From Promethearchaeota archaeon (GTDB lineage: Archaea; Asgardarchaeota; Thorarchaeia; Thorarchaeales; Thorarchaeaceae), in NCBI GenBank assembly GCA_014728035.1, contig WJMJ01000128.1, positions 16,139 through 80,138 of the forward strand: a stretch of DNA of 64,000 nt. Reading direction: 5' to 3'. Below, in pieces: positions 8,804 to 43,098 of the stretch; within the stretch, counting starts at the first letter, position 1; every line of letters begins with the position of its first letter. The position numbers and the translations under genes are program-made. The notes beneath the pieces are model-generated. The model did not search any database. It worked only from the letters and a program-made list of their open reading frames with translations, and was not told the DNA's origin.

Positions 8804-10021
8804 TTAGAATTTCTTAATCAAGAGAATTACCACAATGACAGATATCCCCGATAGAATAGATGCCATCACGACAATAGGAGTACCCATGCCACCAATCAGA
8901 CCTGGAATGACTGAAATATCTACAGTGTCTTGATCTACATTGCCCCTAGCGTCACGAACTTCAAGTGTTATATTATGAACACCTGGTGAAAGATTGTCGA
9001 TATCGACCGATATTGTTCTACCATGCCAAGGCATGATTTGTGGTTCATTTCCATCTAGTGAGAGTGAGTAGCTGTAAGGAAAGTCGTCACTTGCATTCCA
9101 AGATACAGTATTCCCACGAGTTTCATATTCAATTGTAATATCACTAGAGGGTTCAATTATTGGAAAATCTAAGTCAAGCAGTGTAACAGGAAAATGATCT
9201 CGTGAGCCCGCAGTTCCATCTATCTGATGCTCATCAGTTTGCTGAAGGTTGCTCCATCGATTTCCTTGGGCAATCCCATCATCCCAACGATTCCATGTGC
9301 CATCATCTTCTGCATTATTGAGTGGATGTATGTCATCAAATCCACCATTCCATCCAATGCTATTATTGAACACAAGATGGCCTTCTGAAAACCCATCAAG
9401 TTCAATCCCAGATAGACTATTCCCATATATTTTGCATTGGGTAACTGTAGAGTTTTGGCCACCAGAGATATCAATACCCTTAGCGTTATTGCTGGTAGTA
9501 CACTTGATGGCAGTACAATTTCGTGAAGAGGACATTCTGATACCTGAATTACCATTATGAAAACTACTGTTGATTATACTAAATTCTTCAACTCCAGACA
9601 ATTCGATACCATATCTTGGATTACCAACAACAATGCAATCTTGAACAATCCCATTTCTTGTGTTTGTCATCAACAATGCAGCATTACTCCCACCTCCAAT
9701 CAAGTAGCAATTTCGAATCACATAATGTGAGTCAATATTCCGTATGGATATACAAATAGTGCCGGAAATTCGAAGGTTCTCAATAACATATGGGTCTTCA
9801 ACACTGCCAGATCCTGAAAATCCATGAGATGTAAAATCAAGGTCATCATTGATTGAGAAAGGAATATGCTCCTCGTAAGAAAGGGCATGGTTTGAAAGAG
9901 GTATGCTATTTGCAGAATGAACTGATGGAATATATGCTGTACACATGCATAATAAAATCAGCATGACTAGACCCTTTGTCAAATAACCTTTCACCGTCAT
10001 GGTTAATTCCACTAGAATCAT
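8804..10021 (-). CDS. Membrane-anchored right-handed parallel beta-helix (NosD/CASH) protein with Ig-like domain
   Basis: Signal peptide, GSGSVEDPYVIE motif, GI-x-L repeats, WDDG...GNRWS, Ig-like LSPGVHNITLEVRDARGN, C-terminal TM plus KK. Confidence 0.85.
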   Translation of the reverse strand: MILVELTMTVKGYLTKGLVMLILLCMCTAYIPSVHSANSIPLSNHALSYEEHIPFSINDDLDFTSHGFSGSGSVEDPYVIENLRISGTICISIRNIDSHYVIRNCYLIGGGSNAALLMTNTRNGIVQDCIVVGNPRYGIELSGVEEFSIINSSFHNGNSGIRMSSSRNCTAIKCTTSNNAKGIDISGGQNSTVTQCKIYGNSLSGIELDGFSEGHLVFNNSIGWNGGFDDIHPLNNAEDDGTWNRWDDGIAQGNRWSNLQQTDEHQIDGTAGSRDHFPVTLLDLDFPIIEPSSDITIEYETRGNTVSWNASDDFPYSYSLSLDGNEPQIMPWHGRTISVDIDNLSPGVHNITLEVRDARGNVDQDTVDISVIPGLIGGMGTPIVVMASILSGISVIVVILLIKKF

Positions 10022-11934
10022 GTTCTAAGTCTACGTTTAAGGATAACGACCAGAATAATTACTGCTACGGAAATAGCGCTACCAACCAATATCATCAGAA
10101 GTAGAGGGCTGTCTCCCGAACCAACAGGTGGATAGGGATTTCTCTCGTATAAGGTCAATGGAAAATTATCTACACTATTAGCATCACCATCTATAGGATA
10201 GATTGCAGCTACCGACGGGTCGAAATCACTCCATGAGTTACCTTGACTTATTCCATCATCCCACATATTCTCTGAGCCTTCATCACGAGCATTTCCTTCA
10301 CCATTCCAACCAATAGCATTTCCAAAAATGAGATTATACTGACATGTAGAAGTGTACACGCCAAGATAGATTCCATATAGTGTGTTGTTGAATACTGCAT
10401 TATTTCGAATGGTCACATTCGTTGTATCATATATGAATTCGATACCATTAGGTGAGTTGTTATAAATCCGATTTCCAAATATCATTAATTCGAAACACAC
10501 ACCAACAGAGATTCCACCATGTTGCCAAGTAAATTTGCCATTATGGTGAATGTCATTGAATTCGATATAGCAATCTTTTGAAGAATACAGACTGATTCCT
10601 GCAACCACATTGTGATACAGTTCAACTTCACGAACTTCACAACCTTCACAGAAGATCAACTGGATACCAATAGAAGTATTATGAATACTTCCGGATTCAA
10701 TAGTTACATCATCAGCATTTGTCAGGATTATCTGGCCGTAGATATCTGCACTAAGATTCACATTGAAATCAGCGTTCGAGTAGTACAGAGGTTTTCCATT
10801 GACAATATTTGATTCTATAGTATGAATAGTTTGCGATATTGAACTAGCCACGAGTTCAATTCCACCATTAACAAAAACATTGTTGGAAATTTCAATACTG
10901 TTAGAATAAACAACTTGCAGACTGGAGCTCCCTTCAAAGTAATTTTCTAGGATTGTCAAGCTATCTGATTCCAGAACGATTATACTTGAGCTGAATGCGA
11001 AAATGTCATTGTCGGAAATATGTGCATCATTTGAATGCCAAAGTCTCATTCCAACTGATACATCATTCAATGCATTATTCTCAATTTTGAAATCACGGGA
11101 GAATTCTACCGCAATCCCATAATTAGCCGATGTGATGATGTTATCAGATACAATCCACCCATAACCATCACCTGCTAAGACTAACACAACAGACAGCACT
11201 ACAGCAGCTTCATTATAAGTTGGGCCACTATGATTCAGAATGGTGTTGTTTTCACAGATGCAATTATAGGATACTCCACTCAGTAAGATAGATGCTTGAC
11301 TACAAGATTGTATTGTGCTATTAGAAATAGTTGCATTCTCGGAAGTTATGATACCTATCCCAATTATAGAAGTAGTCACTTGATTAAGTATAACATCAGT
11401 ATTGTTGCATTCGAGTCCATAAATCGCTTGGAATGAGTGATGAACTGAATTATTTTGGATAGATATTTCATTAACCGAATGAACCGAAATTCCCGAATCC
11501 TTGTCACGAATTATATTATCTGCTACTGTACCATGTGTCACATTTTCGAAATATATACCAGAACCAAAATCAGGCCCAAAAAATGAATAAGGGGAAACTG
11601 AATCAATCCAGCATAAAGTGATTTCAAAGTAACTATGGATATTGGTGATATTGATACAGGTAACATCAGAAGTGATATTTAATCCAGAAATTATGTATGG
11701 ATCATTTTCTGTTCCAGAACCACCAAATCCTAATGTGCCAAAATCGCTTTCTTCGTCAATCAAGATAGGTGAGTGAGGAGTATAAGATCCAGTAGATATC
11801 TCTAGCGTGAAGTTTCCATTATCAGACTTGTCAGAAACAATATTTAGCTCCATAGGGTATGGATTTTTGTTTATTGGTTGAAATAGTACGATTGATAGCA
11901 GCAAAACGCCAATGGTCAAGCTTCTTATTTTCAT
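10018..11934 (-). CDS. Membrane-anchored parallel beta-helix (NosD/CASH) protein, long form
   Basis: Signal peptide, GSGTENDPYIIS, many PbH1-type repeats, NIVNGKPLYY insert, C-terminal TM plus KRR. Confidence 0.85.
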   Translation of the reverse strand: MKIRSLTIGVLLLSIVLFQPINKNPYPMELNIVSDKSDNGNFTLEISTGSYTPHSPILIDEESDFGTLGFGGSGTENDPYIISGLNITSDVTCINITNIHSYFEITLCWIDSVSPYSFFGPDFGSGIYFENVTHGTVADNIIRDKDSGISVHSVNEISIQNNSVHHSFQAIYGLECNNTDVILNQVTTSIIGIGIITSENATISNSTIQSCSQASILLSGVSYNCICENNTILNHSGPTYNEAAVVLSVVLVLAGDGYGWIVSDNIITSANYGIAVEFSRDFKIENNALNDVSVGMRLWHSNDAHISDNDIFAFSSSIIVLESDSLTILENYFEGSSSLQVVYSNSIEISNNVFVNGGIELVASSISQTIHTIESNIVNGKPLYYSNADFNVNLSADIYGQIILTNADDVTIESGSIHNTSIGIQLIFCEGCEVREVELYHNVVAGISLYSSKDCYIEFNDIHHNGKFTWQHGGISVGVCFELMIFGNRIYNNSPNGIEFIYDTTNVTIRNNAVFNNTLYGIYLGVYTSTCQYNLIFGNAIGWNGEGNARDEGSENMWDDGISQGNSWSDFDPSVAAIYPIDGDANSVDNFPLTLYERNPYPPVGSGDSPLLLMILVGSAISVAVIILVVILKRRLRT

Positions 11935-12047
11935 AATCTCTCCTCAAATATTGTACAGTGAATACGAGTCCAAACGAATATGAATTCTTGTTTTGAAAGA
12001 ATAAAAAATCTACGCGGAGAAACGGACTCGATATATTAAATCGACAA

Positions 12048-13211
12048 TCATTTCTTTCTTTTAATAATCAAGATGATAATGACGATGACAATTCCAGCAC
12101 CAAATGCACCCAAAAGTAATGGATTCAATCCCATTGAAGGCATAGTAGGGTCAGCATCAATACTGGCCCGAGGATAGGGATCCTGATTTTCCGCAGCTCC
12201 ATCAATTGCATAGGGAAAATCAATGATATCATCATCGTTAGCGTCAGGAGCAATCCAATCAGAATAGAAATTGAACATGAATTCATTATTTGCTCCAGCA
12301 TCATAACACTGACTAGTACCAGTATTTTGTACAAACGAATTCCATGTAATAGAGTTATTTACAGAATTACTCGAAAGAGAAACCCCGTAGTCGGAGTTCA
12401 TTCCTATAAGATTTCGAAAAACCAATCCATCACTTGATGACCGAAAAGCAATACCAACTCCGTCATTAGATTCTATTACACAATTGTCAATATTGATGGC
12501 TTCACATGAAGTCAGATTTACTCCATCTAGACCAGAGTAGGTTATCTCATTGCGTGCGATGTTTATGGATGATGAAGAAGACAATCTGACAGCATCAGAT
12601 GTTGAGTTAACAATATCATTATCTTCAATTGACAGTGTATCAGTGTCAATGGAAAGAATACCATTATCTCCGTTATGTTCAATATCACTTTCACGGATTG
12701 TAACATTGCTACAGGAAGATTTCATTTCAATTCCTTGAGCCGTGTTACTATGAATATCACAGAGTTGAATCATAACATTTTCACAATTTGAGAGAAGAAT
12801 GCCTGATGACCGATTATAGATTTCTACATTGAGTATTCTTCCGTTTGATACCTGATTTAGAAAAATTCCGGTCCATGTTCCACTTCCATTAATTATACAA
12901 TCAGAAAGTAAGAAGTAAACTGAAGTATCGGAAATACTAATCGCATGAGTAGTTGTATTATCAAATTGATATCCAGTTATCACATACGGATCGCTAAACA
13001 CTCCAGATCCGGTCCACCCTTCCGATATCGCAAGATTCTGAAAATCCAGATTACTGGTTATTAAAATAGGATCATGATACGCTATACTAGTGTCAATAAA
13101 TTTAGGGGATTGCCAAGTCTTCTTGGTTGAATCCAGAGGATATACATACATCATAGTAGTTATCAAAATCAAAAGGAGAAGGAAACTGGTTTTTTTATTC
13201 ATCTTCTTCAC
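12048..13211 (-). CDS. Membrane-anchored parallel beta-helix (NosD/CASH) protein
   Basis: Signal peptide, GWTGSGVFSDPYVI, beta-helix repeats, DANDDDIID Ca-binding-like loop, TM plus KRKK. Confidence 0.85.
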   Translation of the reverse strand: MKKMNKKTSFLLLLILITTMMYVYPLDSTKKTWQSPKFIDTSIAYHDPILITSNLDFQNLAISEGWTGSGVFSDPYVITGYQFDNTTTHAISISDTSVYFLLSDCIINGSGTWTGIFLNQVSNGRILNVEIYNRSSGILLSNCENVMIQLCDIHSNTAQGIEMKSSCSNVTIRESDIEHNGDNGILSIDTDTLSIEDNDIVNSTSDAVRLSSSSSINIARNEITYSGLDGVNLTSCEAINIDNCVIESNDGVGIAFRSSSDGLVFRNLIGMNSDYGVSLSSNSVNNSITWNSFVQNTGTSQCYDAGANNEFMFNFYSDWIAPDANDDDIIDFPYAIDGAAENQDPYPRASIDADPTMPSMGLNPLLLGAFGAGIVIVIIILIIKRKK

Positions 13212-13290
13212 TCCAAGCTGAGATATGAAGGCATCAGACTCTGTGATAAGAGAAAGTCGTGTTCAGTTATAAGGAATACTTTTTGAAAAT

Positions 13291-14661
13291 TTAGAAACGT
13301 TTCCTCACAAAAACTATCAAGATAAATACACATATTGCCGATACTATCGAAGAAACAGCGATGCGCATCAAATCCAACGCATTGAACGGGCTATCAGAAT
13401 AATACATCTGATTTATGATGAGAATAGATTCATTTCTGTATGGATTCTCATGTGGTCTGGAATCACTAATTCCTGTAGTACCTGCAAGCTGATACGGAAC
13501 ATCCACAACTTGATTGTTATCGATGTCGGGCTCTGTGTGGTCGGAATAGAAGTTATCTACAAATACGGTACTTATTCCATTATCATTAGCTTGAGGTGAT
13601 ATTCCATTATGAACAAAATCATTCTGCAGAACGGTGTTGTTGGTACAGCTTGGTTCGATTATCACTCCATAACTTTCACTTAGAGCAAATATGTTCCAAG
13701 ATATTCTGTTTCTTGAAGTAGATTGATTTTCTAGCGACGATGATTGTAGACGAAGCCCTTCATTAGAACAGTTCATTAGAATATTTCCATGAATTGTACA
13801 GTCTGATGCCAAAATCCACAACCCCCGATTACAGTTCTCCATGAGGTTAAAACTAAAAACACATTGTGCTGCCTGAGAACCTAGAGCTTCTCTATTTGAC
13901 ATGATTATTCCAGTCTGCCGAACTGATTGGATGTGATTTCGTATTACGGAAACATATACCGATTCTAAGATGTGAATACCTACAGATCTAAGGTCACTAA
14001 TCGTATTATTATCCAATACCAACCTGTTCTCTTCAGTCCCATGAGATGATGAAATGATGATGCCAGCACCTATGCAATCATAAATTGAATTTTCAGTCAC
14101 CACGATTGGACCAGAACAATTAGCTATCTGTATTGCGGAATATTCATCGGTCACAATATTTTCATTGATAGAAAAATTTGAACAGTTATAGATAACAATT
14201 CCATTCGTACCGTTCAATATGGTGTTTCGTTCAATAATGAAGTTCGTGCTATTTGAAATTTGGATTGCAGCCCATTGCGATGAATAGGTATTCAGGTAAT
14301 TGTCTAAGATATGAAAATGCAATCTAATGTTCTGGATACGAATCAGCCAACTTATTCCTTCTATAGAATACCGTTGGATTAGTATTGGATTCTCAATCGT
14401 TCCTGTTCCACTCCACTCATTTTCAGTTGCAATAGAAAGAAAATTCTCATCACTATCAATATGAATGGGATGCCTGTTTTCATAGAATGCTGCGTTTTCA
14501 ATTGAAGATACATTCAAATCCTGTTGGTTTTTTGTGAGAACTGGTATTGTTAATAGACTGAATAGAAGAAGAATGGTTAGCAACGATTGAAAAAGGTTGT
14601 ATCGCATTACGAACATCAAGCTAGATAGATGTGGTTTCAGAATTAATAGATTTACATCCAA
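13291..14661 (-). CDS. Membrane-anchored parallel beta-helix (NosD/CASH) protein
   Basis: Signal peptide, WSGTGTIENPILI, beta-helix repeats, DIDNNQVVD loop, TM plus RKRF; real start probably a little downstream of 14661. Confidence 0.85.
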   Translation of the reverse strand: MDVNLLILKPHLSSLMFVMRYNLFQSLLTILLLFSLLTIPVLTKNQQDLNVSSIENAAFYENRHPIHIDSDENFLSIATENEWSGTGTIENPILIQRYSIEGISWLIRIQNIRLHFHILDNYLNTYSSQWAAIQISNSTNFIIERNTILNGTNGIVIYNCSNFSINENIVTDEYSAIQIANCSGPIVVTENSIYDCIGAGIIISSSHGTEENRLVLDNNTISDLRSVGIHILESVYVSVIRNHIQSVRQTGIIMSNREALGSQAAQCVFSFNLMENCNRGLWILASDCTIHGNILMNCSNEGLRLQSSSLENQSTSRNRISWNIFALSESYGVIIEPSCTNNTVLQNDFVHNGISPQANDNGISTVFVDNFYSDHTEPDIDNNQVVDVPYQLAGTTGISDSRPHENPYRNESILIINQMYYSDSPFNALDLMRIAVSSIVSAICVFILIVFVRKRF

Positions 14662-14790: not shown

Positions 14791-17535
14791 ATGGAAACAG
14801 AATCTTTCGAGATCATCAGTTGCGATATAGAAGAGAATGAAGTAGAAATAATGGGCATCCCAATTTCAAACATATATTTTTCTAATGAATCTCTTGAAGA
14901 GAATACCTACTACTCTTTTGTTGGTGAAAAATTACCCCAAGTAGTTATGAAAGGTGTGAAAATTAATAAAGGCCAAAATAGTAGTTTCAAGCTTGATCAA
15001 ATAGGTGTATCAAAAGATATAGCGAGTCTTCTAGGTGGTAGAAAAAAAGCCAGTCTTTCATATTGTGGAATGTCATATTGGGGAATTAGCTTACTAGCTG
15101 ATGATAGATTTTCTGCAAATGAATCTATTTACTGTGATGAAGAATATCTCTATCTTGTTGACAACGTGTTTATTGAAATATTTGACAAGAAAACTTTACA
15201 TAGACTATCTACCATAAATATTGGAAGAAGGAAGATTCGTGTAATCAACACATCTAATGAGAAGTTATTTGTTATTGTTAACGAGTATATCTATGTATTT
15301 TCAAGACACAATTGGCGTCTTCTAAAGGGTAGACAATATACAGCAAAAGAACCGAAAGAAATACTTCCGGTTTTCAGAAAAAATAATTTCTTCGTGTTTG
15401 AAAAAGCAATTATTCGTATTGAAACTGATACTTATACGGAGAAAAAATACCTTGGAGGCACAAGGTCAACAGGAGCTATCACAGTTGATGATTCACACCT
15501 TTATCAAAGCGGATACAACGGTATAATGAAGATTTGGAAACTTAATCAGGATAGACCATTTACTGAATTACGGGGGCATAAGGCTGAATATCTATTGAAT
15601 GATGAAATCTATATCTATTCTTTCAAAGAAAATAAAATCAATATATGGAGCAAAGGAAGAAAAGAACTAAGAGTAAAAGGTTTAGTAGGTTCAATTTCTG
15701 CTCCACCTGCACAGTCAAAGAGATTTTTATTTGTCCCGATTGGTCAAATAATGTTGGTATTGGAAAAAACAACTTGGGAAAGTGTAACTATAGAAACTGG
15801 CAAGGTCAAATCAGTTTGTGCTGACAATGACAGAATATACGTACTAAGCGAGGATGAACTAAAGATATATCAAGAAGACACACACAAACTCATCTCAAGA
15901 CTTGAACGATCGGACCAGAAACTCAGAAAAAATGAAAGAGGGGGTTATTGGGGTGTGCTGAACGATAAGGTATATGCTGACATCTTTGAGGGGATGGAAA
16001 TGCATACCTATAGATGGGACATTGGTGACTGGGAGCCGAAAGTTGTCCATAGAGATGAATTCAAATTTTCCGACAGGTCAAAATCATCCCATGTGAGTCA
16101 GATTGGATCTCATATCGTCTTTATTTCCGACAAGAAGAATACTGCAGATATAGTAGGAAAGATGCTTGATACCTTGCAATTCGAAATGCCAATGGTGATA
16201 AAAAGCTCTGTTACACGGATAATTGAACCTGTTCTCTTGCAGACTAAAACAGATTTGTTTCATTTAGAATTGATACAAATGACAAGTGACCTTGAAATAC
16301 CTAGGGATTTCAAAATTAGAAGTCTAGATTTCTCTAGTGAGTCTACAATGGAAAAAGAGGAAAGAACTGAAGAACCAGTCGTTCCCGAGCTTATCCCCTC
16401 CAGTGACGAAATTAAGGAAGCGATAGATGAAATCGAATCCCACGGAGTTGTTGTGAAACGAGGCTATGTTAGTGAAGGTGGTAGTATAAAATACAAGGTC
16501 AAGATCGAAAATCATACTAAATATGTCATTAATAATGTTACAATCAATATTCTGGGATATCCAAATGATACGCTGAAACTAGTCAGTTCAAAAGAGAGAA
16601 TCGTTCAACGTATTGAACCAAATGGCGCATTCAGATCTCTGCAATTCATATTTCAACCAACTCAAGATTGTGTTGAAGGAGAGATACTTGCTACAGTATC
16701 CTATATAGACCACCAGAATGAGATTGTAACTATCAAAGTTGCACCTCAAGTCATACGATCGATATGCGATATGTTGGAACCAATTGAGATGCGATTAGAT
16801 GAGGTCATGGAATGTATTGATACAATGGATTCTGGACTTGAAGAACATCCTTTGCCATGGAATGCTGCTGTTACTTTTTCAATGCTGTCAAGATTAGTTG
16901 CACTAAAGAATATCCAAGTTACTAGTAGCGAGTCTCGGGAGGTTGGTAAGCAGTTTATTGGTACAATTCGAGGTATGGCTAAAGGAAAATATACGGATAA
17001 GCGAATAGCTCTTGAAATCGTCATAGTTGGCAATATTGCAGACCCAAAATGTATGATGAGTTTGAAGATCTGTAGTGATGAGGAAGATATGATTCCGGTG
17101 TTAATCACGGAAATCATGAAAGAGATTAGAAATCTGAGACTTTCCATAGACAAGGTTGTTACTGATATGGACCAACTCCTAATGAATGCAGGAGAATCTT
17201 TGGAATCAAGTAAAATCATTCTTGCAAGTATCCAAGAACTTGAATCAAAACAAGATACTAATTCATTATTAGCCAAGAAGATATTGGACTTGATAACGCG
17301 AAAATATGAGGAAATACTGACAAAGGAGGTTAATGAGGAAGCTGCAATTAATGAAACTCTTGATTTAGTAAAAATGATGTCCGAAAAAGTCCTAGAAAAG
17401 AAGTCCATTCGGGATCGTCTTATGTCGGGATTAAGAAAAGTTGCCAGTGAAAAAATTGAGAAGTCAGCAGCACAAGTCCTCTGTGGAATTGCAAAAACAG
17501 CTTTGTTGGTACTAACAGGAATTCCGATACCATAA
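14791..17535 (+). CDS. WD40/beta-propeller protein with adaptin/beta-COP appendage-like (Ig + platform) domain and helical C-terminus
   Basis: Propeller blades (AITVDDSHLYQSGYNGIMKIW...LRGH; SVCADNDRIYVLSEDELKIY). Aa ~553-780 (YKVKIENHT...IRSICDMLEP...SLKICSDEEDM) resembles the appendage sandwich plus platform, followed by a helical/coiled-coil tail. Confidence 0.65.
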   Translation: METESFEIISCDIEENEVEIMGIPISNIYFSNESLEENTYYSFVGEKLPQVVMKGVKINKGQNSSFKLDQIGVSKDIASLLGGRKKASLSYCGMSYWGISLLADDRFSANESIYCDEEYLYLVDNVFIEIFDKKTLHRLSTINIGRRKIRVINTSNEKLFVIVNEYIYVFSRHNWRLLKGRQYTAKEPKEILPVFRKNNFFVFEKAIIRIETDTYTEKKYLGGTRSTGAITVDDSHLYQSGYNGIMKIWKLNQDRPFTELRGHKAEYLLNDEIYIYSFKENKINIWSKGRKELRVKGLVGSISAPPAQSKRFLFVPIGQIMLVLEKTTWESVTIETGKVKSVCADNDRIYVLSEDELKIYQEDTHKLISRLERSDQKLRKNERGGYWGVLNDKVYADIFEGMEMHTYRWDIGDWEPKVVHRDEFKFSDRSKSSHVSQIGSHIVFISDKKNTADIVGKMLDTLQFEMPMVIKSSVTRIIEPVLLQTKTDLFHLELIQMTSDLEIPRDFKIRSLDFSSESTMEKEERTEEPVVPELIPSSDEIKEAIDEIESHGVVVKRGYVSEGGSIKYKVKIENHTKYVINNVTINILGYPNDTLKLVSSKERIVQRIEPNGAFRSLQFIFQPTQDCVEGEILATVSYIDHQNEIVTIKVAPQVIRSICDMLEPIEMRLDEVMECIDTMDSGLEEHPLPWNAAVTFSMLSRLVALKNIQVTSSESREVGKQFIGTIRGMAKGKYTDKRIALEIVIVGNIADPKCMMSLKICSDEEDMIPVLITEIMKEIRNLRLSIDKVVTDMDQLLMNAGESLESSKIILASIQELESKQDTNSLLAKKILDLITRKYEEILTKEVNEEAAINETLDLVKMMSEKVLEKKSIRDRLMSGLRKVASEKIEKSAAQVLCGIAKTALLVLTGIPIP

Positions 17536-21337: not shown

Positions 21338-21512
21338 CTATCTAATACTGACTAAGGCTCAGTTAAATACTGTATTGTCCTAACAAAATTCAAGTTCCCT
21401 CAGAACAAAGTAGAAAAGGACTCCCTTCATTGAGAGAATAATTAATACTGCATATTGGTAAGAACATCAGGTCCAATTATTAGCAGATTGAGTATATGAT
21501 TGAGGTATTGAA

Positions 21513-23828
21513 GTGACATCGCCCAAAATATTATCCGAAATTTCTGACGACTTAAGTACAAGCGCGATTGCAGTAGGAGATGTAACCGGTTCGGGTGAGC
21601 CGGAACTCTGTACTGGAGGACGTGATGGTGTATTACGTCTCTATAGCACAAATCATAGTTCGTATAAATTTCTAGCTCAACTGGACCTATCAGGAAGCAT
21701 TCTATCTATCAAGATTGCAGATGCAAATAATGATGGACAAAACGAAATTGTGATTGGTAGAAGTGTAGGGATTGGAGAAACACCAGGAGCAACTGGAACA
21801 GTTCAGATATACAGATACGCTCCAAGCGGGCAATTTGAACTATTGGCAGAACATGCTATTGATAGATTTGTTACCACTGTTGTAGTTACTGATGTCACAG
21901 GTGATGACAAAAACGAGATTGTTGCAGGAGGAAGTGATTCCACCCTCAGAGTTCTGAGAATGTCGCCTGAAAATCAATTATCTGAATATGCAAAATACCA
22001 ACTTGATGACATGCCGATTGCCATTGGTACTTGCGATGTGATTGGTGACGAGATTGATGAGATGGTCACTGGTAACCGTGATAAGACTCTGCGTGTATTC
22101 AAACTTCGAGAGGGTGTCATTGAGCAAATAGAAGTTCTTGAACTTCCCAGTCCAGTTATCTCAGTCACCTCAGGAGACATCCTGGGAGACCGAAAGATGG
22201 AACTTGGTGTTGTTACTCATGATGGCTCAATCAGAATTTACAGAAATGAAGAGAGTAAGCTTGACCTCTTCTCCACACTCGAGGATGTGAAAGCATTATC
22301 GATTAGAATGGAAGAGATAAATGCAGACCATATGGATGAGGTCATAATAGCTACTTCTGATATGAAAATCAATTTTTACAATCTGTATATGGCAGATCTG
22401 AACCTTGTAGCATCTGTAGATATAGACTCGAAAATACTAGCTCTAAGTGTAGGAGATTCGAGAGGGGATGAGCGGAAAGAGGTGCTTGTAGGAGTATCAA
22501 ATGGTCCATTGAAAATAATAGAGGGCCTCTACAAAGTTATTCCGAGTTTTGATATTCCACATTCCGCAAAAATTGGTAGTCCAATTATTGCCAAAGCAAC
22601 ACTAGAGAATGTCACAGACCAACCAATGACAGGAATCGCTGGGAAGATATACTGGTTTCCAAAAGATCACATGGAAATTTCAAATCAACAATTGCGATTC
22701 GACCTTGAACCAGGTGAGAAGAAAACCGTTGAAGTGAAACTCCTTCCAAAGAAAGAAGGTAGTGTCATCATTCGACCAGTCGTTCTGATGTGGAAAGACG
22801 ATCAAGAGAAAGTCAATCAAGTTACAACTCCAGAAACTGTTCTTCTGATAGAGAAAGGGGATGGAGAAGCTTTCATGACATCACTTGAGGAAGAAAGTTC
22901 AGAACCTGTCGAGTCAGTAGATTCTACACGAACTGAAACAGCCACTAAATTCACACCTGCAGAAGGAACTGGATTTAGTTCGATTCCAGACTCTGAAATA
23001 GCACAGATTACTTCACAAAAGAGTAGTCCTCAAGATTCGCTCAAGGAAGCTGAAGCTCTTTTGGATCAGTTATTTGGTGGTGAATCAGACGCGAAAGCGG
23101 CATTAGAGGACGTAAAATCCATGATGGGGTCAGAAACAGCTACCGAATCTGTTTCTACAACACCTGAAGATACCACGGAGCCAGAAGCCACGGAAGTTGA
23201 ATCTGATCTGGTCACCGAAATTCGGACCCGAAAACCAAAACCAACACGCCCCAATGCTTCAGCCGATGCCTATTCATACCTATTCAAGACCATGGTTATT
23301 GGTGAGGGTGCTGTTGGAAAGACAACACTGGTAAACCGTTATGTAACTGGTGTATTCGAACGAGATTACAAGACAACCATAGGATCACAATTTGCTGTTA
23401 AGCTAACGCATATCTCACCACCATCCAGCGAATATGCAGTTGGTATCAAGATACAAGCATGGGACGTTGCAGGACAAGCTAGATTCAAAGCTGTTAGGAA
23501 GATGTACTATTCTGGAGCAGCAGGGGTTATTTTGGTTTTTGATGTCACAAGACGCAGATCTTTCAAAGAGTTGCATAAATGGATAGAAGAAGCTGATTCT
23601 TCAATTGGAACCCGTGTCCCAATGATATGTGTAGGAAACAAAATTGACCTTCCAGATAGAGCAGTCAGTTCAGAAGAAGCCAAAAAGTGGGCTGAGGACC
23701 AAGGATTCCTCTACATGGAAAGCTCAGCAAAGACTGGGGAAGGTGTTGCTGACATGTTCACAGTTCTAGCAGAATTGATGTGGCGTGAAGCAAAGAAGAA
23801 TGCAGAGGCGAAAAAGAAGGGAATGTAG
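21513..23828 (+). CDS. FG-GAP/BBS2-like beta-propeller + Ig-like domain + acidic linker + Rab-like small GTPase fusion
   Basis: About seven repeats of the type D(V/I)xGDxxxE(I/L)VxGxxDxxLR; Ig sandwich; GTPase motifs GEGAVGKT, TTIGSQF, WDVAGQ, NKID, SSAK. Confidence 0.88.
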   Translation: MTSPKILSEISDDLSTSAIAVGDVTGSGEPELCTGGRDGVLRLYSTNHSSYKFLAQLDLSGSILSIKIADANNDGQNEIVIGRSVGIGETPGATGTVQIYRYAPSGQFELLAEHAIDRFVTTVVVTDVTGDDKNEIVAGGSDSTLRVLRMSPENQLSEYAKYQLDDMPIAIGTCDVIGDEIDEMVTGNRDKTLRVFKLREGVIEQIEVLELPSPVISVTSGDILGDRKMELGVVTHDGSIRIYRNEESKLDLFSTLEDVKALSIRMEEINADHMDEVIIATSDMKINFYNLYMADLNLVASVDIDSKILALSVGDSRGDERKEVLVGVSNGPLKIIEGLYKVIPSFDIPHSAKIGSPIIAKATLENVTDQPMTGIAGKIYWFPKDHMEISNQQLRFDLEPGEKKTVEVKLLPKKEGSVIIRPVVLMWKDDQEKVNQVTTPETVLLIEKGDGEAFMTSLEEESSEPVESVDSTRTETATKFTPAEGTGFSSIPDSEIAQITSQKSSPQDSLKEAEALLDQLFGGESDAKAALEDVKSMMGSETATESVSTTPEDTTEPEATEVESDLVTEIRTRKPKPTRPNASADAYSYLFKTMVIGEGAVGKTTLVNRYVTGVFERDYKTTIGSQFAVKLTHISPPSSEYAVGIKIQAWDVAGQARFKAVRKMYYSGAAGVILVFDVTRRRSFKELHKWIEEADSSIGTRVPMICVGNKIDLPDRAVSSEEAKKWAEDQGFLYMESSAKTGEGVADMFTVLAELMWREAKKNAEAKKKGM

Positions 23829-23830
23829 GA

Positions 23831-24430
23831 CTATTGAGTTGTTTGAGAAACTCCTATATCAAAGGCTTCAAGATTTTTTTCACTTGACCCTAAAACGTTA
23901 ATGAGCGCAGCTCTAATAGAATCAATGGAGAGGGGGGAAATTCTCATACCGGCCATCACACCAATAAGGAGTACATTAAGAGAACGAAAAGCATCGATAG
24001 ACCGAAGAATCTTATCTGTATCGATAGCAATCACTTTCATGCAAATTTTTTGGTGAATTGCAACAATACGTTCAACATCAGGATAGTGTTCAGTGCCTCT
24101 ATGTACATTGCTTGAATAGATAGGGGTTTTACTCAGAATCGCAATAGTATCAGACCCTGCGAATTTCACAGATGCTCGAAGAGATTCTATCGGTTCCAAA
24201 CCAATCAAAAGATTGAGTGTTCCCTTGGGAACTAAAGGACTTGCATCTTTATCCCAAACTCGGATATGAGTGAAAACAGATCCACCTCTTCTTGATGCAC
24301 CAAAGGTTTCCCCTACAACAGGACGTAACTCTTCAAGCTGAACAGCTTTTGCAAGTACTCTTCCAGCAATAACATTGCCTTGCCCACCAACACCAGCGAA
24401 TATGATGTTATATGGATAATCCATATTCAT
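23831..24430 (-). CDS. iorB: Indolepyruvate:ferredoxin oxidoreductase beta subunit
   Basis: AGVGGQG, GASRRGGSV, GLEPIE. Confidence 0.88.
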   Translation of the reverse strand: MNMDYPYNIIFAGVGGQGNVIAGRVLAKAVQLEELRPVVGETFGASRRGGSVFTHIRVWDKDASPLVPKGTLNLLIGLEPIESLRASVKFAGSDTIAILSKTPIYSSNVHRGTEHYPDVERIVAIHQKICMKVIAIDTDKILRSIDAFRSLNVLLIGVMAGMRISPLSIDSIRAALINVLGSSEKNLEAFDIGVSQTTQ

Positions 24431-26280
24431 TCCTCCTCAATAGCCCCATGAGGACAAACTGATATACAAGACCCACATCTCACACATTGATACTGCAGAA
24501 TTTCTGCTTTCTCGGTTTGCTTGTTCCAAGTGATTGCAGTACAACCATAATCGCGAACACAAATTTTACAATCAGTACCACGACATAATTCAGATTTTAC
24601 TATAATACGCGATGCATCACCTTGTTTCTGCCTACGTTTTTCTTCGAGCCTGCAAACCCCATCTAATAGGAGTACCTTTAGTCCAGACTCCTTTATAGTT
24701 GAATAGATCAAATCAGTTAGCTGAGACACATCGGTTGAATCTATCCTTGTAAATACATCTGGTTTAATACTTTGAACAATATCCGGAATTCTGACCATGT
24801 GCTTCATTTCGCCGATTTTCATGGAACCAGGATGCGATTGAAACCCTGTCATTGCGGTAGTAGCATTGTTCAGAATAAGAAAAGTCAAATCAGCATTATG
24901 ATGACGGGCATCAATAAGAGCAGGAATACAGGCGTGAAAGAAGGTCGAATCTCCTGCCACTGAAACCACTTTTGATTCAAGTCCAAACTTAGAAAGCTGT
25001 CCAATGCCACTAGCTGTTCCAATTCCTGATCCCATTGCTTGCATTGACTCCAAAACATCATTATAGAACACCCCCAAAGAATAACATCCAATATCTCCGG
25101 TTACTATCAGATTTCCTTTCAACCTTTTTCGAACTCGACTTAAGGCATAGAATACATTTCTATGAGTGCATCCTGCACAAAATGTTAAGGGTCGGGATAT
25201 CAGATGTTTTTCAGCATCATGGATACCTTCAGGCATTGTAGGCTGTTTCATTAATGTGACAAACTCACGTAGAGATTCTAATACAACATCTACATTCATC
25301 TCACCATGAGCTGGAACGAGATTGGTTCGTTTCCCCTCAATTCTACAAGTATGATCTTGAGTTGAAGCTATTGCACGGAATTCATCCTCAACAAAAGAAT
25401 CAGTTTCTTCGAAGAAGATGATAGTCTTTGCTTCTTCTAGTGCTTGTCTAACAAGTTTATCAGGAAGAGGAAAAGTTGTAACAAGACCTAGGAGGGACAC
25501 TGCTTCTTCAATATACAATTGTGCTTCTTCAACGTATTTTTGGCAGACACCTGTGGAAATAATTACTATATCATTCCAGTCAATAGGAATGGTATTGAGA
25601 GTGAAAGAGTTGAATTGCTCTCGTATTTTTTCAATTCGCCCCAGTAAGTCGAGATGGCGAAGGTCCGGGTGAGGTACATTGTAGAGACCTTTTGGTAAAT
25701 TCTGATGGGCAATCCATTTTCCACTGGAGATGTTTTCTGTTTTAACTAATGCGCTGGAATGAGATAATCTAGTTGTACTGCGAATTAGAACTGGGATTTG
25801 GAAATCTTGGGAGAGTTTCAGTGCAAAGTCCATGACGTCGTACGCTTCCTGTGGAGTACTTGGTTCTAGTAATGGAATATTAGCAGCTTTTGCGTAGAAA
25901 CGGGAGTCCTGTTCATTACTAGAACTATGTCCCTTCGGATCATCACAGACAATTATTACGAGCCCACCAGTTCCAGTGCCGGAGAGATTTAGATTTAATA
26001 GAAAATCTGAAGCCACATTTAGCCCCAATGATTTCATTACACAGACTGATGGGATACCCATCCAGCTTGCTCCAGCAGCTGCTTCCAAAGCGACTTTTTC
26101 GTTCACTGCCCATTCAATGATGTTGTTTGTTTTTGATTGGTAAAGCATAAGGGTCTCAATAATCTCTGTCGAGGGAGTCCCAGGATATCCAGTACAGAAA
26201 CCTATTCCTGCTGAAATAGATCCTCTTGCAAAAGCGATATTCCCACTCATTAACTGCTCAGATTTGAGACCTGAATCCAT
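24427..26280 (-). CDS. iorA: Indolepyruvate:ferredoxin oxidoreductase alpha subunit
   Basis: GYPGTPSTE, NEKVALE, SSSNEQDSR, FCAGCTH, GDIGCY, GDSTFFH, C-terminal ferredoxin; start about 26280. Confidence 0.93.
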   Translation of the reverse strand: MDSGLKSEQLMSGNIAFARGSISAGIGFCTGYPGTPSTEIIETLMLYQSKTNNIIEWAVNEKVALEAAAGASWMGIPSVCVMKSLGLNVASDFLLNLNLSGTGTGGLVIIVCDDPKGHSSSNEQDSRFYAKAANIPLLEPSTPQEAYDVMDFALKLSQDFQIPVLIRSTTRLSHSSALVKTENISSGKWIAHQNLPKGLYNVPHPDLRHLDLLGRIEKIREQFNSFTLNTIPIDWNDIVIISTGVCQKYVEEAQLYIEEAVSLLGLVTTFPLPDKLVRQALEEAKTIIFFEETDSFVEDEFRAIASTQDHTCRIEGKRTNLVPAHGEMNVDVVLESLREFVTLMKQPTMPEGIHDAEKHLISRPLTFCAGCTHRNVFYALSRVRKRLKGNLIVTGDIGCYSLGVFYNDVLESMQAMGSGIGTASGIGQLSKFGLESKVVSVAGDSTFFHACIPALIDARHHNADLTFLILNNATTAMTGFQSHPGSMKIGEMKHMVRIPDIVQSIKPDVFTRIDSTDVSQLTDLIYSTIKESGLKVLLLDGVCRLEEKRRQKQGDASRIIVKSELCRGTDCKICVRDYGCTAITWNKQTEKAEILQYQCVRCGSCISVCPHGAIEEE

Positions 26281-26393
26281 AGTAACCGAACTCACCATCC
26301 CAAAGATAAAGCAATAGAAAACAGTTTCCATTAACATAATTCCTGAGTGAAAACAATGAAAAAGGGTTGTGAATACTAGAAATTCGAATAACC

Positions 26394-27467
26394 ATGAGTA
26401 AAAAAGGAGAGGCACGAGGTAAAAAACTCACATCCGTGTTCTCAATTTCACACGATAAAGACGTGGATGGGTTATGTGCTGCAGCAATTGTTGCTAGATA
26501 TGCAAAACAGAAAAACCTCGAATTCGATGTACTCCTAACAGATTACGGATCATTCGAATATGCATTCTCGAAAGTAGCAGGATTGCGGGATACACTTATT
26601 GTAGTTACTGATCTCGGATTAGATGAGAACTATTTGGACGCTGTTGAGAAGGGCTTAAGCAGGGCGATTTCCCAGAATTGTAGAGTAGTATGGCTGGATC
26701 ACCACGAGTGGTCAAAAGAAGCTATCAAGACAATTATTCAATTAGAACGGAAGCCAATTGTGAAAATCAATCACGATTTCTGTGCAGCGGAGATAGTATA
26801 CAAAGTATTGATGCCTAGAGACCTCATCAGTGGAGAACTGGCTGCAATTGCTCATGATACTGATTTCAATGAAAGGAAGATACTAGCCGCAAATGCTTTG
26901 ACTGATGCGGTATCAGTGATTAGATTTAGTGCGATTGACAAAAGACATGATATCACTGATTCACTCAAACCCCTGTTATTTGCATTAAGTGAAAATGGAA
27001 TTGCAGGAGTATGGGACTCGAAACGCAAGAAATTACGAGATAACCTTCTCGCAAAACAAGTGCATCATTATAGAAAAGACAAAGCAAAGAAAATGAAGAA
27101 AGCCTTTGCAGGCCATTGTGATCAAGAGATTAAAGAACTCTTAGTTAGAATTGTAGAGATTCCCTCAGGAGTCACAACAACAGATTTTGGCACATACCTA
27201 GCAAATCCAGATAATTTGGAAATCGATGGCAAAAAATACAAGCCAGCAGACCTTTTAATTACACTTAGTCAAGGTGGAATGTTAGGATTTAGAAGAAGTG
27301 GAGAAAAAGCACTTTGCAATGCAGCTGCAAAAATCTTCAAAGGTGGTGGCCATCCGTACGCAGCCGGAGGAGAATACGGGCTCTACGATGATTTTGGTGC
27401 GGTTTGTGCGGATATCTTCAACACCCTTAGCAAAGACACTTCTTGGATTACAGAAGAATCAGGATAA
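26394..27467 (+). CDS. DHH family phosphoesterase (DHHA1 domain)
   Basis: HDKDVDG, TD, LDHH, GGGHPYAAG. Confidence 0.88.
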   Translation: MSKKGEARGKKLTSVFSISHDKDVDGLCAAAIVARYAKQKNLEFDVLLTDYGSFEYAFSKVAGLRDTLIVVTDLGLDENYLDAVEKGLSRAISQNCRVVWLDHHEWSKEAIKTIIQLERKPIVKINHDFCAAEIVYKVLMPRDLISGELAAIAHDTDFNERKILAANALTDAVSVIRFSAIDKRHDITDSLKPLLFALSENGIAGVWDSKRKKLRDNLLAKQVHHYRKDKAKKMKKAFAGHCDQEIKELLVRIVEIPSGVTTTDFGTYLANPDNLEIDGKKYKPADLLITLSQGGMLGFRRSGEKALCNAAAKIFKGGGHPYAAGGEYGLYDDFGAVCADIFNTLSKDTSWITEESG

Positions 27468-42474: not shown

Positions 42475-43098
42475 TCACTCTTTCTGACGTTCTTCAACAA
42501 GCGTCTTTGCTAATTGTTCAAAGATGTCAACAATTCCTTGTCCTGTCTTCGCACTTGACTCAACATAAGGCATGTCATGACGTTCTGCGAATTCTTTGCC
42601 CTCTGCAGGGTCTACAACACGATCTGGTAGGTCTGTTTTATTAGCAACAAGAACTAAAGGTATTTTCTTTCCTAGTGCTTTCTCTAATTCATTCAGCCAT
42701 TCTTCAAGAACGATAAACGTTCTTCGTCGACTAACATCATAGACGAGAATTCCACCACTAGACCCACGATAGTACATTGGACGTAGAATCTGAAAACGAG
42801 ACTGGCCAGCAACATCCCAAATTTGAAGTTTTACTGTTAGAGGATCACCACTACGGGAAGGGATCTCAAGGTTCTTCACGGCAAATTGAGAGCCGATTGT
42901 TGTCTTGTAATCTGTACGGAAAAATCCATGAGAGAAGCGTGTAACAATAGCAGTCTTACCTACTGCTCCTTCCCCTAGCACAACCACCTTAAACAGGAAA
43001 TCATAGCTACTACTCACGTGAACGCCTCGTTTGATTTTATAGGGAGTGGTCGAATCGAAATTCGACAATAACTTGTCCAAATCGTCAAGAAATGGCAA
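42475..43098 (-). CDS. Rab-like small GTPase
   Basis: GEGAVGKT, TTIGSQF, KLQIWDVAGQ, YYRGS, LVYDVS, NKTD, SSAK; no C-terminal Cys. Confidence 0.93.
   Translation of the reverse strand: MPFLDDLDKLLSNFDSTTPYKIKRGVHVSSSYDFLFKVVVLGEGAVGKTAIVTRFSHGFFRTDYKTTIGSQFAVKNLEIPSRSGDPLTVKLQIWDVAGQSRFQILRPMYYRGSSGGILVYDVSRRRTFIVLEEWLNELEKALGKKIPLVLVANKTDLPDRVVDPAEGKEFAERHDMPYVESSAKTGQGIVDIFEQLAKTLVEERQKE

Follow-up and report, generated by a model that had tools for sequence, protein, structure and literature searches.

The large Rab GTPases of eukaryotes (Rab44, Rab45/RASEF and CRACR2A) carry N-terminal interaction domains, namely EF-hands and coiled coils, followed by a long linker and a C-terminal Rab domain, and are prenylated. 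In Asgard archaea, the partners and roles of many Rab-like GTPases are almost entirely unknown. Thor-Rab, a stand-alone protein of 182 aa, has been reported to be active as a GTPase and to have no lipid anchor, and no membrane targeting was seen in HeLa cells (PMC10933270). Seven-bladed β-propellers of the FG-GAP superfamily followed by a β-sandwich are found in the BBSome subunits BBS2, BBS7, BBS9 and BBS1 (6VBU, 6VOA, 4YD8, 4V0M), and a single cytosolic propeller of the FG-GAP type in ITFG2 of KICSTOR (9O5A, 9V6E). In this study, we report that a gene in a window of 64,000 nucleotides of Thorarchaeaceae DNA (Promethearchaeota archaeon, assembly GCA_014728035.1, contig WJMJ01000128.1, forward-strand positions 16,139 to 80,138) encodes such a propeller, an immunoglobulin (Ig)-like sandwich, an acidic linker and a Rab-like small GTPase (G) domain in one chain, and show that this fusion is a real, single-copy and strongly conserved gene of the Thorarchaeia. 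An earlier note on this DNA had read it as a Rosetta-stone fusion joining a coat-like subunit to its recruiting GTPase. The fusion provides no evidence for a proto-coat; it combines a multi-domain Rab-like GTPase with an FG-GAP propeller-Ig module, both of kinds already known. No publication describing a propeller-Ig-Rab fusion was found in literature searches, and the main text of PMC12962969 makes no mention of BBS, ITFG2, FG-GAP or propeller.

The survey of Asgard archaea suggested in the earlier note was carried out on 400 genomes of the phylum, using the propeller-Ig part as query (E <= 1e-20). The fusion was recovered once per genome in 77 of the 85 genomes of its own family and in the sister family's only genome, always fused, with an open reading frame (ORF) of 757-826 aa wherever the gene was not cut by a contig end. 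At the same threshold the propeller-Ig part was not found in the approximately 313 other Asgard genomes, save for one weak match, and the range of the fusion among the 400 genomes is a single Asgard order. Clustered at 90% identity, the proteins with the full architecture made up at least 164 clusters, with lengths of about 757-826 aa and 63-89% identity to the query. An exhaustive phmmer scan of 1.84 billion representatives returned only three full-length or near-full-length family members, two of them of about 780 aa, one of which, the divergent member P0124, was confirmed to have the Ras domain; the other close matches were fragments, and no unfused orthologue was present. The Rosetta-stone claim was not sustained, as no unfused orthologue paired with a GTPase and no operon partner were found, and the fusion occurs in one order only. 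The fusion is a rare case of a Rab-like switch welded to a large interaction platform and kept in single copy across a whole order. The weak match of the phylum search, the sole one outside the Thorarchaeia, lies in a genome of another Asgard family (G143; positions 580-2814 of locus L036, minus strand); it is a protein of 744 aa with an N-terminal FG-GAP/BBS7-like propeller, an unannotated C-terminal part of about 400 aa and no GTPase, and its gene adjoins a TFIIB gene.

The intact Rab-like G domain described in the earlier note was confirmed. All five G motifs are present, with G1 GEGAVGKT at residue 597, G3 DVAGQ at 651, G4 NKID at 709 and G5 SAK at 738, and together with the catalytic Gln they predict a hydrolysis-competent enzyme. 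RabF-like segments (IGSQF, KIQAWD, RFKAVR, YYSGA and LVFDVT) were read by eye, following the motif definitions cited in PMC10933270. The segment DYKTTIG has Thr at the position where Thor-Rab has Arg (DYKRTIG); judged by eye, this Arg is probably the Arg37 of Switch I described in PMC10933270. The Pfam Ras family matched the domain (aa 592-755) with 157 bits as against 50 bits for Arf, and the NCBIfam small_GTP model with 85 bits. The best PDB sequence match was Thor-Rab (7EZB; E 1.3e-44, 155.6 bits), followed by Rab14, and all of the best 60 PDB sequences listed were Rabs or Thor-Rab. Judged by these matches, the G domain is Rab-like, standing nearer to Rab than it does to Ras, Rho, Ran or Arf. 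It shares with Thor-Rab (7EZB/7EZD/7EZE; PMC10933270) the P-loop G-x-G-A-V-G-K-T, the DxAGQ and NKxD motifs, the RabF-like segments, the lack of a C-terminal Cys and the origin in the same archaeal class; it differs in forming the C-terminal fifth of a protein of 771 aa, whereas Thor-Rab stands alone.

The GTPase phylogeny proposed in the earlier note was computed by maximum likelihood; it comprises 10 fused G domains and, from the same genome, the 25 small-GTPase matches other than the fusion (26 matches in all). All fused G domains, including that of a lineage of 43% identity, formed one clade of their own (100/96), and its sister (92/89) was a stand-alone Rab-like paralog encoded in the same window (Table 1). 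It follows from this single clade, with a stand-alone Thorarchaeial paralog as its sister, that the fusion has one origin, in a Thorarchaeial Rab-like gene that had been duplicated. Outside the window, a 485-aa ORF of the same genome encodes a second multi-domain small GTPase (contig C88, 18465-18830, minus strand), in which the G domain is N-terminal and is followed by about 300 aa.

The fold of aa 1-455 was modelled with AlphaFold2 on a family alignment of 33 sequences, giving a predicted local distance difference test score (pLDDT) of 92.3 and a predicted template modelling score (pTM) of 0.88. The model contains 28 strands, arranged as seven blades of four strands (aa 6-336), and passes directly into a β-sandwich at 342-454. 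The propeller of about seven FG-GAP blades expected from the earlier note is thereby borne out, and the blade motifs quoted there were located at aa 127, 175, 221 and 314. FG-GAP_3 was the top Pfam family on the propeller (61.6 bits over four stretches), with FG-GAP at 23.8 bits; BBS2_Mid (54.3 bits), Beta-prop_BBS7 (53.0 bits) and Itfg2 (36.8 bits) all exceeded the cut-off of 27, and the FG-GAP_3 and Ras matches likewise lay above their curated cut-offs. The BBS2_Mid match (PF14783) spans model positions 2-107 of 108, and the Itfg2 match (PF15907) only positions 9-113 of 330. The propeller is a member of the FG-GAP/VCBS superfamily (PF13517, PF01839), its repeated blades forming a seven-bladed propeller. 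Neither a signal peptide, as the earlier note had also stated, nor a transmembrane segment was detected in the fusion, the maximum of the 19-residue Kyte-Doolittle average (KD19) being 1.22. DSSP showed an all-β N-terminal half, the remainder being a disordered linker and the G domain, and no α-solenoid or helical domain was found; for lack of such a domain the protein does not have the protocoatomer order of an N-terminal propeller followed by an α-solenoid.

The Ig sandwich was present as proposed, and its identification specifically as a GAE domain was not supported. A separate model of aa 338-455 (pLDDT 87.3) had TRAP-beta as its best Foldseek match (E 1.8e-5, TM-score 0.79), and further matches were the MG domains of complement and alpha-2-macroglobulin, the C-terminal domains of transglutaminase and protein 4.2, CARDB of Pyrococcus PF1109, MSP/ASH domains and the OCRL ASH-Rab8a complex. 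The domain appears from this model to be a generic MG/CARDB-type sandwich; a GAE relationship, although possible, is not indicated.

The linker was found to be acidic over its length of about 135 aa, as the earlier note had described, with 30 D+E against 11 K+R in aa 451-588 (138 residues). In 32 sequences of the main family it measures 123-151 aa, with 20-34 D+E against 6-12 K+R, and its sequence is variable except for three conserved islands (Table 1); no Pfam family matched it above cut-off. In the first island F480 and T486 are nearly invariant among 34 sequences. The second is the short amphipathic helix of the earlier note, in which E514 is invariant and A513, L516, L517, D518, L520, F521 and G522 are at least 90% conserved; the strict pattern matched 30 of the 32 main-family rows, the remaining two being variants (LF, ML). 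This helix is absent from the 43%-identity sister lineage (P0124), in which the third island, the basic/proline junction that runs into the G domain, is kept as it is in the main family. The helix was also compared by eye with a clathrin box and an acidic-dileucine signal, and fitted neither, the acidic position being unconserved. The C-terminal tail varies in sequence and length across the family, and some members have a short tail without basic residues; such a tail is unlikely to serve as a conserved membrane anchor. Among the 32 family members scanned, none had a Cys within its last 22 residues, and the C-terminus of P0124 had none either; the protein accordingly lacks the C-terminal prenylatable Cys of a eukaryotic Rab proper.

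We consider it fairly probable that the protein is a cytoplasmic 'large Rab-like GTPase', in which a C-terminal Rab switch is tethered in cis to a propeller-Ig platform by an acidic, disordered leash of about 135 aa. A Thorarchaeial Rab-like gene that had been duplicated would have been joined once, at the base of the Thorarchaeia, to a propeller-Ig module. Modules of this type are common in prokaryotes; the one in the fusion lacks a signal peptide. The propeller and the Ig domain would form a rigid protein-interaction platform, and the G domain's nucleotide state, governed by GEFs (guanine nucleotide exchange factors) and GAPs (GTPase-activating proteins), would decide where or when this platform engages its partners. 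The G domain might recruit the whole protein to a GTPase-binding site; alternatively, either the G domain or the linker's conserved amphipathic helix might dock on, or leave, the platform. We infer such roles for the conserved linker motifs. In design the protein resembles the large Rabs of eukaryotes, with a switch and an effector-like module in one chain and the Rab at the C-terminus, a likeness that implies no homology of the non-GTPase parts. As the platform, the linker helix and the G domain can be expressed separately, the fusion offers a tractable handle on the biology of Asgard Rabs.

Several points weigh against this reading. The PDB rankings given below, with BBS2 and ITFG2 first, may leave room for a closer relation to these proteins, and the ESM Atlas search that speaks for a prokaryotic kinship used the Atlas's own model, of lower confidence (pTM 0.54). 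No operon partner was found for the fusion gene, whose conserved neighbours in the 10 loci compared are metabolic (an ABC transporter and iorAB) and lie on opposite strands. The polybasic tail of the earlier note was rejected as a conserved membrane anchor, the tail being of mixed charge and variable across the family, some members of which lack it. For the fusion protein neither a partner, a GEF or a GAP nor a connection to a membrane is known.

The alternative that survives best, although we regard it as unlikely, is a signalling or polarity module, in which the propeller-Ig part, taken from the prokaryotic FG-GAP+Ig pool, senses a ligand or binds the cytoskeleton and the G domain acts as an output switch of the Roc or MglA type, controlling cell shape, protrusion or the cytoskeleton. 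It would suit the nearest sequence relatives and the nearest Atlas structures, which are prokaryotic FG-GAP(+Ig) proteins, and the many multi-domain small GTPases of Asgard genomes (PMC10933270); the present genome itself has 26 small-GTPase matches, including the second multi-domain one of 485 aa. Sandwiches of the Ig/ASH type also bind Rabs in eukaryotes, as in the OCRL ASH-Rab8a complex among the Foldseek matches. However, the G domain is clearly Rab-like and not Roc- or MglA-like, no kinase, COR or MglB-like partner was found among the neighbours of the fusion gene in the window and in 10 further loci, and no ligand is indicated.

A proto-coat or BBSome-like adaptor, as favoured in the earlier note, is improbable. 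In such an adaptor the propeller-Ig part would be a specific homologue of BBS2, BBS7, BBS9, BBS1 or ITFG2, and the fused Rab would act as ARL6 or Rag does, recruiting the protein to a membrane in its GTP state for cargo sorting or membrane shaping. The likeness on which it draws is measurable among solved structures. Foldseek against the PDB placed BBS2 first (E 2.8e-18) and filled ranks 1-13 with BBS2, BBS9, BBS7, ITFG2 and BBS1, which were followed by integrin alpha headpieces at about 1e-12 and by WD40 propellers at about 1e-11. VIA-align also placed BBS2 and ITFG2 first; the geometric margin of the BBS/ITFG2 chains over the propellers of CIAO1 and LGI1 and the COPI WD40 propellers is, however, only about 2 Z. 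When the N-terminal family profile was run against PDB sequences, ITFG2 was best (E 2.2e-7), followed by BBS7 (0.007) and BBS2 (0.04), and no integrin was among the sequences listed. A 2026 preprint (10.64898/2026.10.28.762692) reports, with no further description, one Asgard-eukaryote-exclusive structural cluster labelled 'cilium-associated (BBS7/ITFG2)', which is among the clusters matching an existing catalogue of eukaryotic signature proteins (ESP), which may be counted in favour of an adaptor.

This likeness to BBS2 is not specific, since generic FG-GAP proteins score equally well. Outside the family, the nearest sequence relatives found by phmmer were large multi-repeat FG-GAP_3/VCBS proteins (E 1e-41 to 1e-12), and thousands of prokaryotic FG-GAP proteins had E-values far better than any BBS or ITFG2 chain. 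The large multi-repeat relatives themselves scored 57-67 bits with BBS2_Mid, up to 56 with BBS1, up to 63 with Itfg2 and up to 46 with BBS7, above the Pfam cut-offs. The same genome holds two such cases, both with signal-like N-termini, which the fusion lacks: for the best BBS2_Mid domain a 2245-aa ORF reached 22.9 bits against 23.1 for the fusion, and for the best Itfg2 domain a 1960-aa ORF reached 21.6 bits against 20.2. Common ancestry with BBSome or KICSTOR subunits is therefore not specifically supported, because ordinary prokaryotic FG-GAP propellers share the likeness, and matches to BBSome and KICSTOR Pfam families in prokaryotes should be taken to reflect the FG-GAP superfamily and not eukaryote-specific ancestry.

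The ESM Atlas, which includes models of prokaryotic proteins missing from the PDB, gave a similar picture. The nearest structures were one Asgard cluster, followed by eight bacterial ones, of an FG-GAP propeller with an Ig domain of the ASH/DUF1573, DUF11, FlgD-Ig or dockerin type, aligning over both domains (residues 1 to about 404-453) at TM-scores of 0.68-0.74. By language-model features, VCBS clusters (0.87) stood just above BBS2/BBS1 clusters (0.82-0.84), and the presence of the latter would suit an adaptor; as all scores were below 0.9, these neighbours are leads only. The earlier note had named, as the outcome that would speak against BBS kinship, best structural hits to bacterial VCBS/FG-GAP and CARDB domains with no enrichment for BBS or KICSTOR proteins. 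The first half of this was found, because the Atlas is dominated by bacterial FG-GAP+Ig proteins aligning over both domains, and the second was not, the PDB matches being enriched for BBS and ITFG2. The propeller thus belongs to the same FG-GAP superfamily as BBS1, BBS2, BBS7, BBS9 and ITFG2, with a specific kinship neither established nor refuted.

In a census of the blade loops, every recognisable loop of the fusion read D-x-x-G-D-x-x-x-E-h-h and led into an h-R-h-F strand, the form quoted for BBS2 and ITFG2. This also favours an adaptor, as most giant FG-GAP proteins differ: they mostly have Asp at the E position (E fraction 0.13). All-E loops were found in small signal-less propellers of Helarchaeales (P0137) and Promethearchaeota (P0187), and likewise in a VCBS protein of Euryarchaeota whose N-terminus is signal-like, so that the E-type loop is a trend and not diagnostic. 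The present genome also encodes a signal-less single propeller of 335 aa (contig C103; positions 1471-2478 of locus L002, plus strand), with E-type blades (for example DGKQELV...GDLRVF) and Pfam matches to FG-GAP_3, BBS7 and BBS2_Mid; it belongs to the same class of cytosolic paralogs as P0137 and P0187.

Further differences from the BBSome are found in composition and range. Like BBS2, BBS7, BBS9 and BBS1, the fusion has a seven-bladed FG-GAP-superfamily propeller followed by a β-sandwich and is linked to a GTPase. It has, however, no coiled coil, platform or helical domain: neither BBS2_N (PF14781), BBS2_GAE (PF14782) nor the platform or helical domains appeared among the 25 listed of the 27 families at E <= 1, and the α-solenoid is also absent. 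The BBSome GTPase ARL6 is a separate, Arf-like protein, whereas that of the fusion is Rab-like and covalently joined. The fusion occurs in one order, not in the lineages nearest to eukaryotes, and its tail would be a weak anchor. ITFG2 shares with the fusion a cytosolic location, a single FG-GAP-type propeller and E-type loops; it differs in having neither an Ig domain nor a GTPase, and no KPTN, SZT2 or C12orf66 context is known for the fusion. Prokaryotic FG-GAP_3/VCBS proteins with Ig domains of the ASH, DUF11, FlgD-Ig or CARDB kind resemble the fusion in joining a propeller to a CARDB/MG-type Ig fold. Most of them are secreted or exposed at the surface, frequently as giants with several propellers, and have D-type, Ca-binding-like loops, whereas the fusion is cytosolic and has a single propeller, E-type loops and a fused Rab-like GTPase.

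A related proposal, which we put forward as a long shot, is that the Thorarchaeial propeller-Ig part and the small signal-less E-loop propellers of other Asgard lineages form a true early branch of the lineage leading to BBS1, BBS2, BBS7, BBS9 and ITFG2, with the fused Rab recording an ancestral partnership between GTPase and scaffold. If this were true, the fusion would represent a self-recruiting membrane or cargo adaptor predating the BBSome and KICSTOR.

An artefact, in which a missed stop or an error of sequencing or assembly merged two adjacent genes for a propeller-Ig protein and a Rab, is refuted. The long low-complexity linker is the sole hint of a join; the reading frame has no interruption, the architecture recurs, with linkers of similar length, in 78 independent genomes and at least 164 clusters, and the junction motif is conserved.

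Table 1. Features of the fusion gene and its closest paralog, in positions of the 64,000-nucleotide window
Feature	Position	Strand	Residues and remarks
Whole fusion ORF	21513..23828	+	771 aa; GTG start, TAG stop, frame uninterrupted
5' region of the fusion gene	21438..21512	+	TATA-like A/T-rich stretch AATAATTAATA (about 21438-21448) and GAGGT; putative promoter
Seven-bladed FG-GAP-type β-propeller	21519..22529	+	aa 3-339; AlphaFold2 model, Pfam, Foldseek/VIA, loop census
Ig-like β-sandwich	22536..22874	+	aa 342-454; no linker between propeller and sandwich
Acidic low-complexity variable linker	22875..23276	+	aa 455-588; composition, family comparison
Linker motif 1, F..x.GTGF	22950..22976	+	aa 480-488
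Linker motif 2, amphipathic helix A-E-x-L-L-D-x-L-F-G	23049..23078	+	aa 513-522
Basic/proline junction I-R-x-R-x-P-K-P-x-x-P ... D-x-Y-x-Y-L-F-K	23220..23288	+	aa 570-592; runs into G domain
Rab-like small GTPase domain	23277..23783	+	aa 589-757; G1-G5 intact, catalytic Gln655
C-terminal tail	23784..23825	+	aa 758-771; short, mixed K/E charge, no Cys
Closest paralog of the fused G domain	42481..43011	-	stand-alone Rab-like GTPase, 224-aa open frame, 51% identity; separate from the fusion gene

Read from the sequence, a TGA stop precedes the GTG start of the fusion gene in frame with no other start between them, and the start residue is the same in orthologues. A Shine-Dalgarno-like GAGGT element is located at 21502-21506, 7 nt 5' of the GTG. 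Upstream, an ABC ATPase gene is divergent on the minus strand; downstream, iorB is convergent and ends 2 bp away. With a divergent gene on one side and a convergent one on the other, the fusion gene is its own transcription unit. The order ABC transporter / fusion / iorBA / DHH was conserved in 10 of the 10 loci compared.

Four kb upstream of the fusion, a 914-aa ORF (14791-17535, plus strand) matched no Pfam family at E <= 0.001. A linkage of this ORF to the fusion was considered and rejected, the gene being absent near the fusion in all 10 other loci, the same genus included; because of this absence from the other Thorarchaeial neighbourhoods, it looks like a lineage-specific insertion. Further upstream (8804-14661, minus strand) lie four tandem genes of 405, 638, 387 and 456 aa, all with right-handed β-helix/NosD domains, which appear to be a locally expanded paralog array, as copies also occur near the fusion in other Thorarchaeia. 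The longest ORF of iorA (24427-26415, minus strand) has 662 aa and a GTG start, and its first 45 or so residues are hydrophobic and rich in Phe and Cys; this N-terminal part is probably an over-extension, with the true start further downstream.

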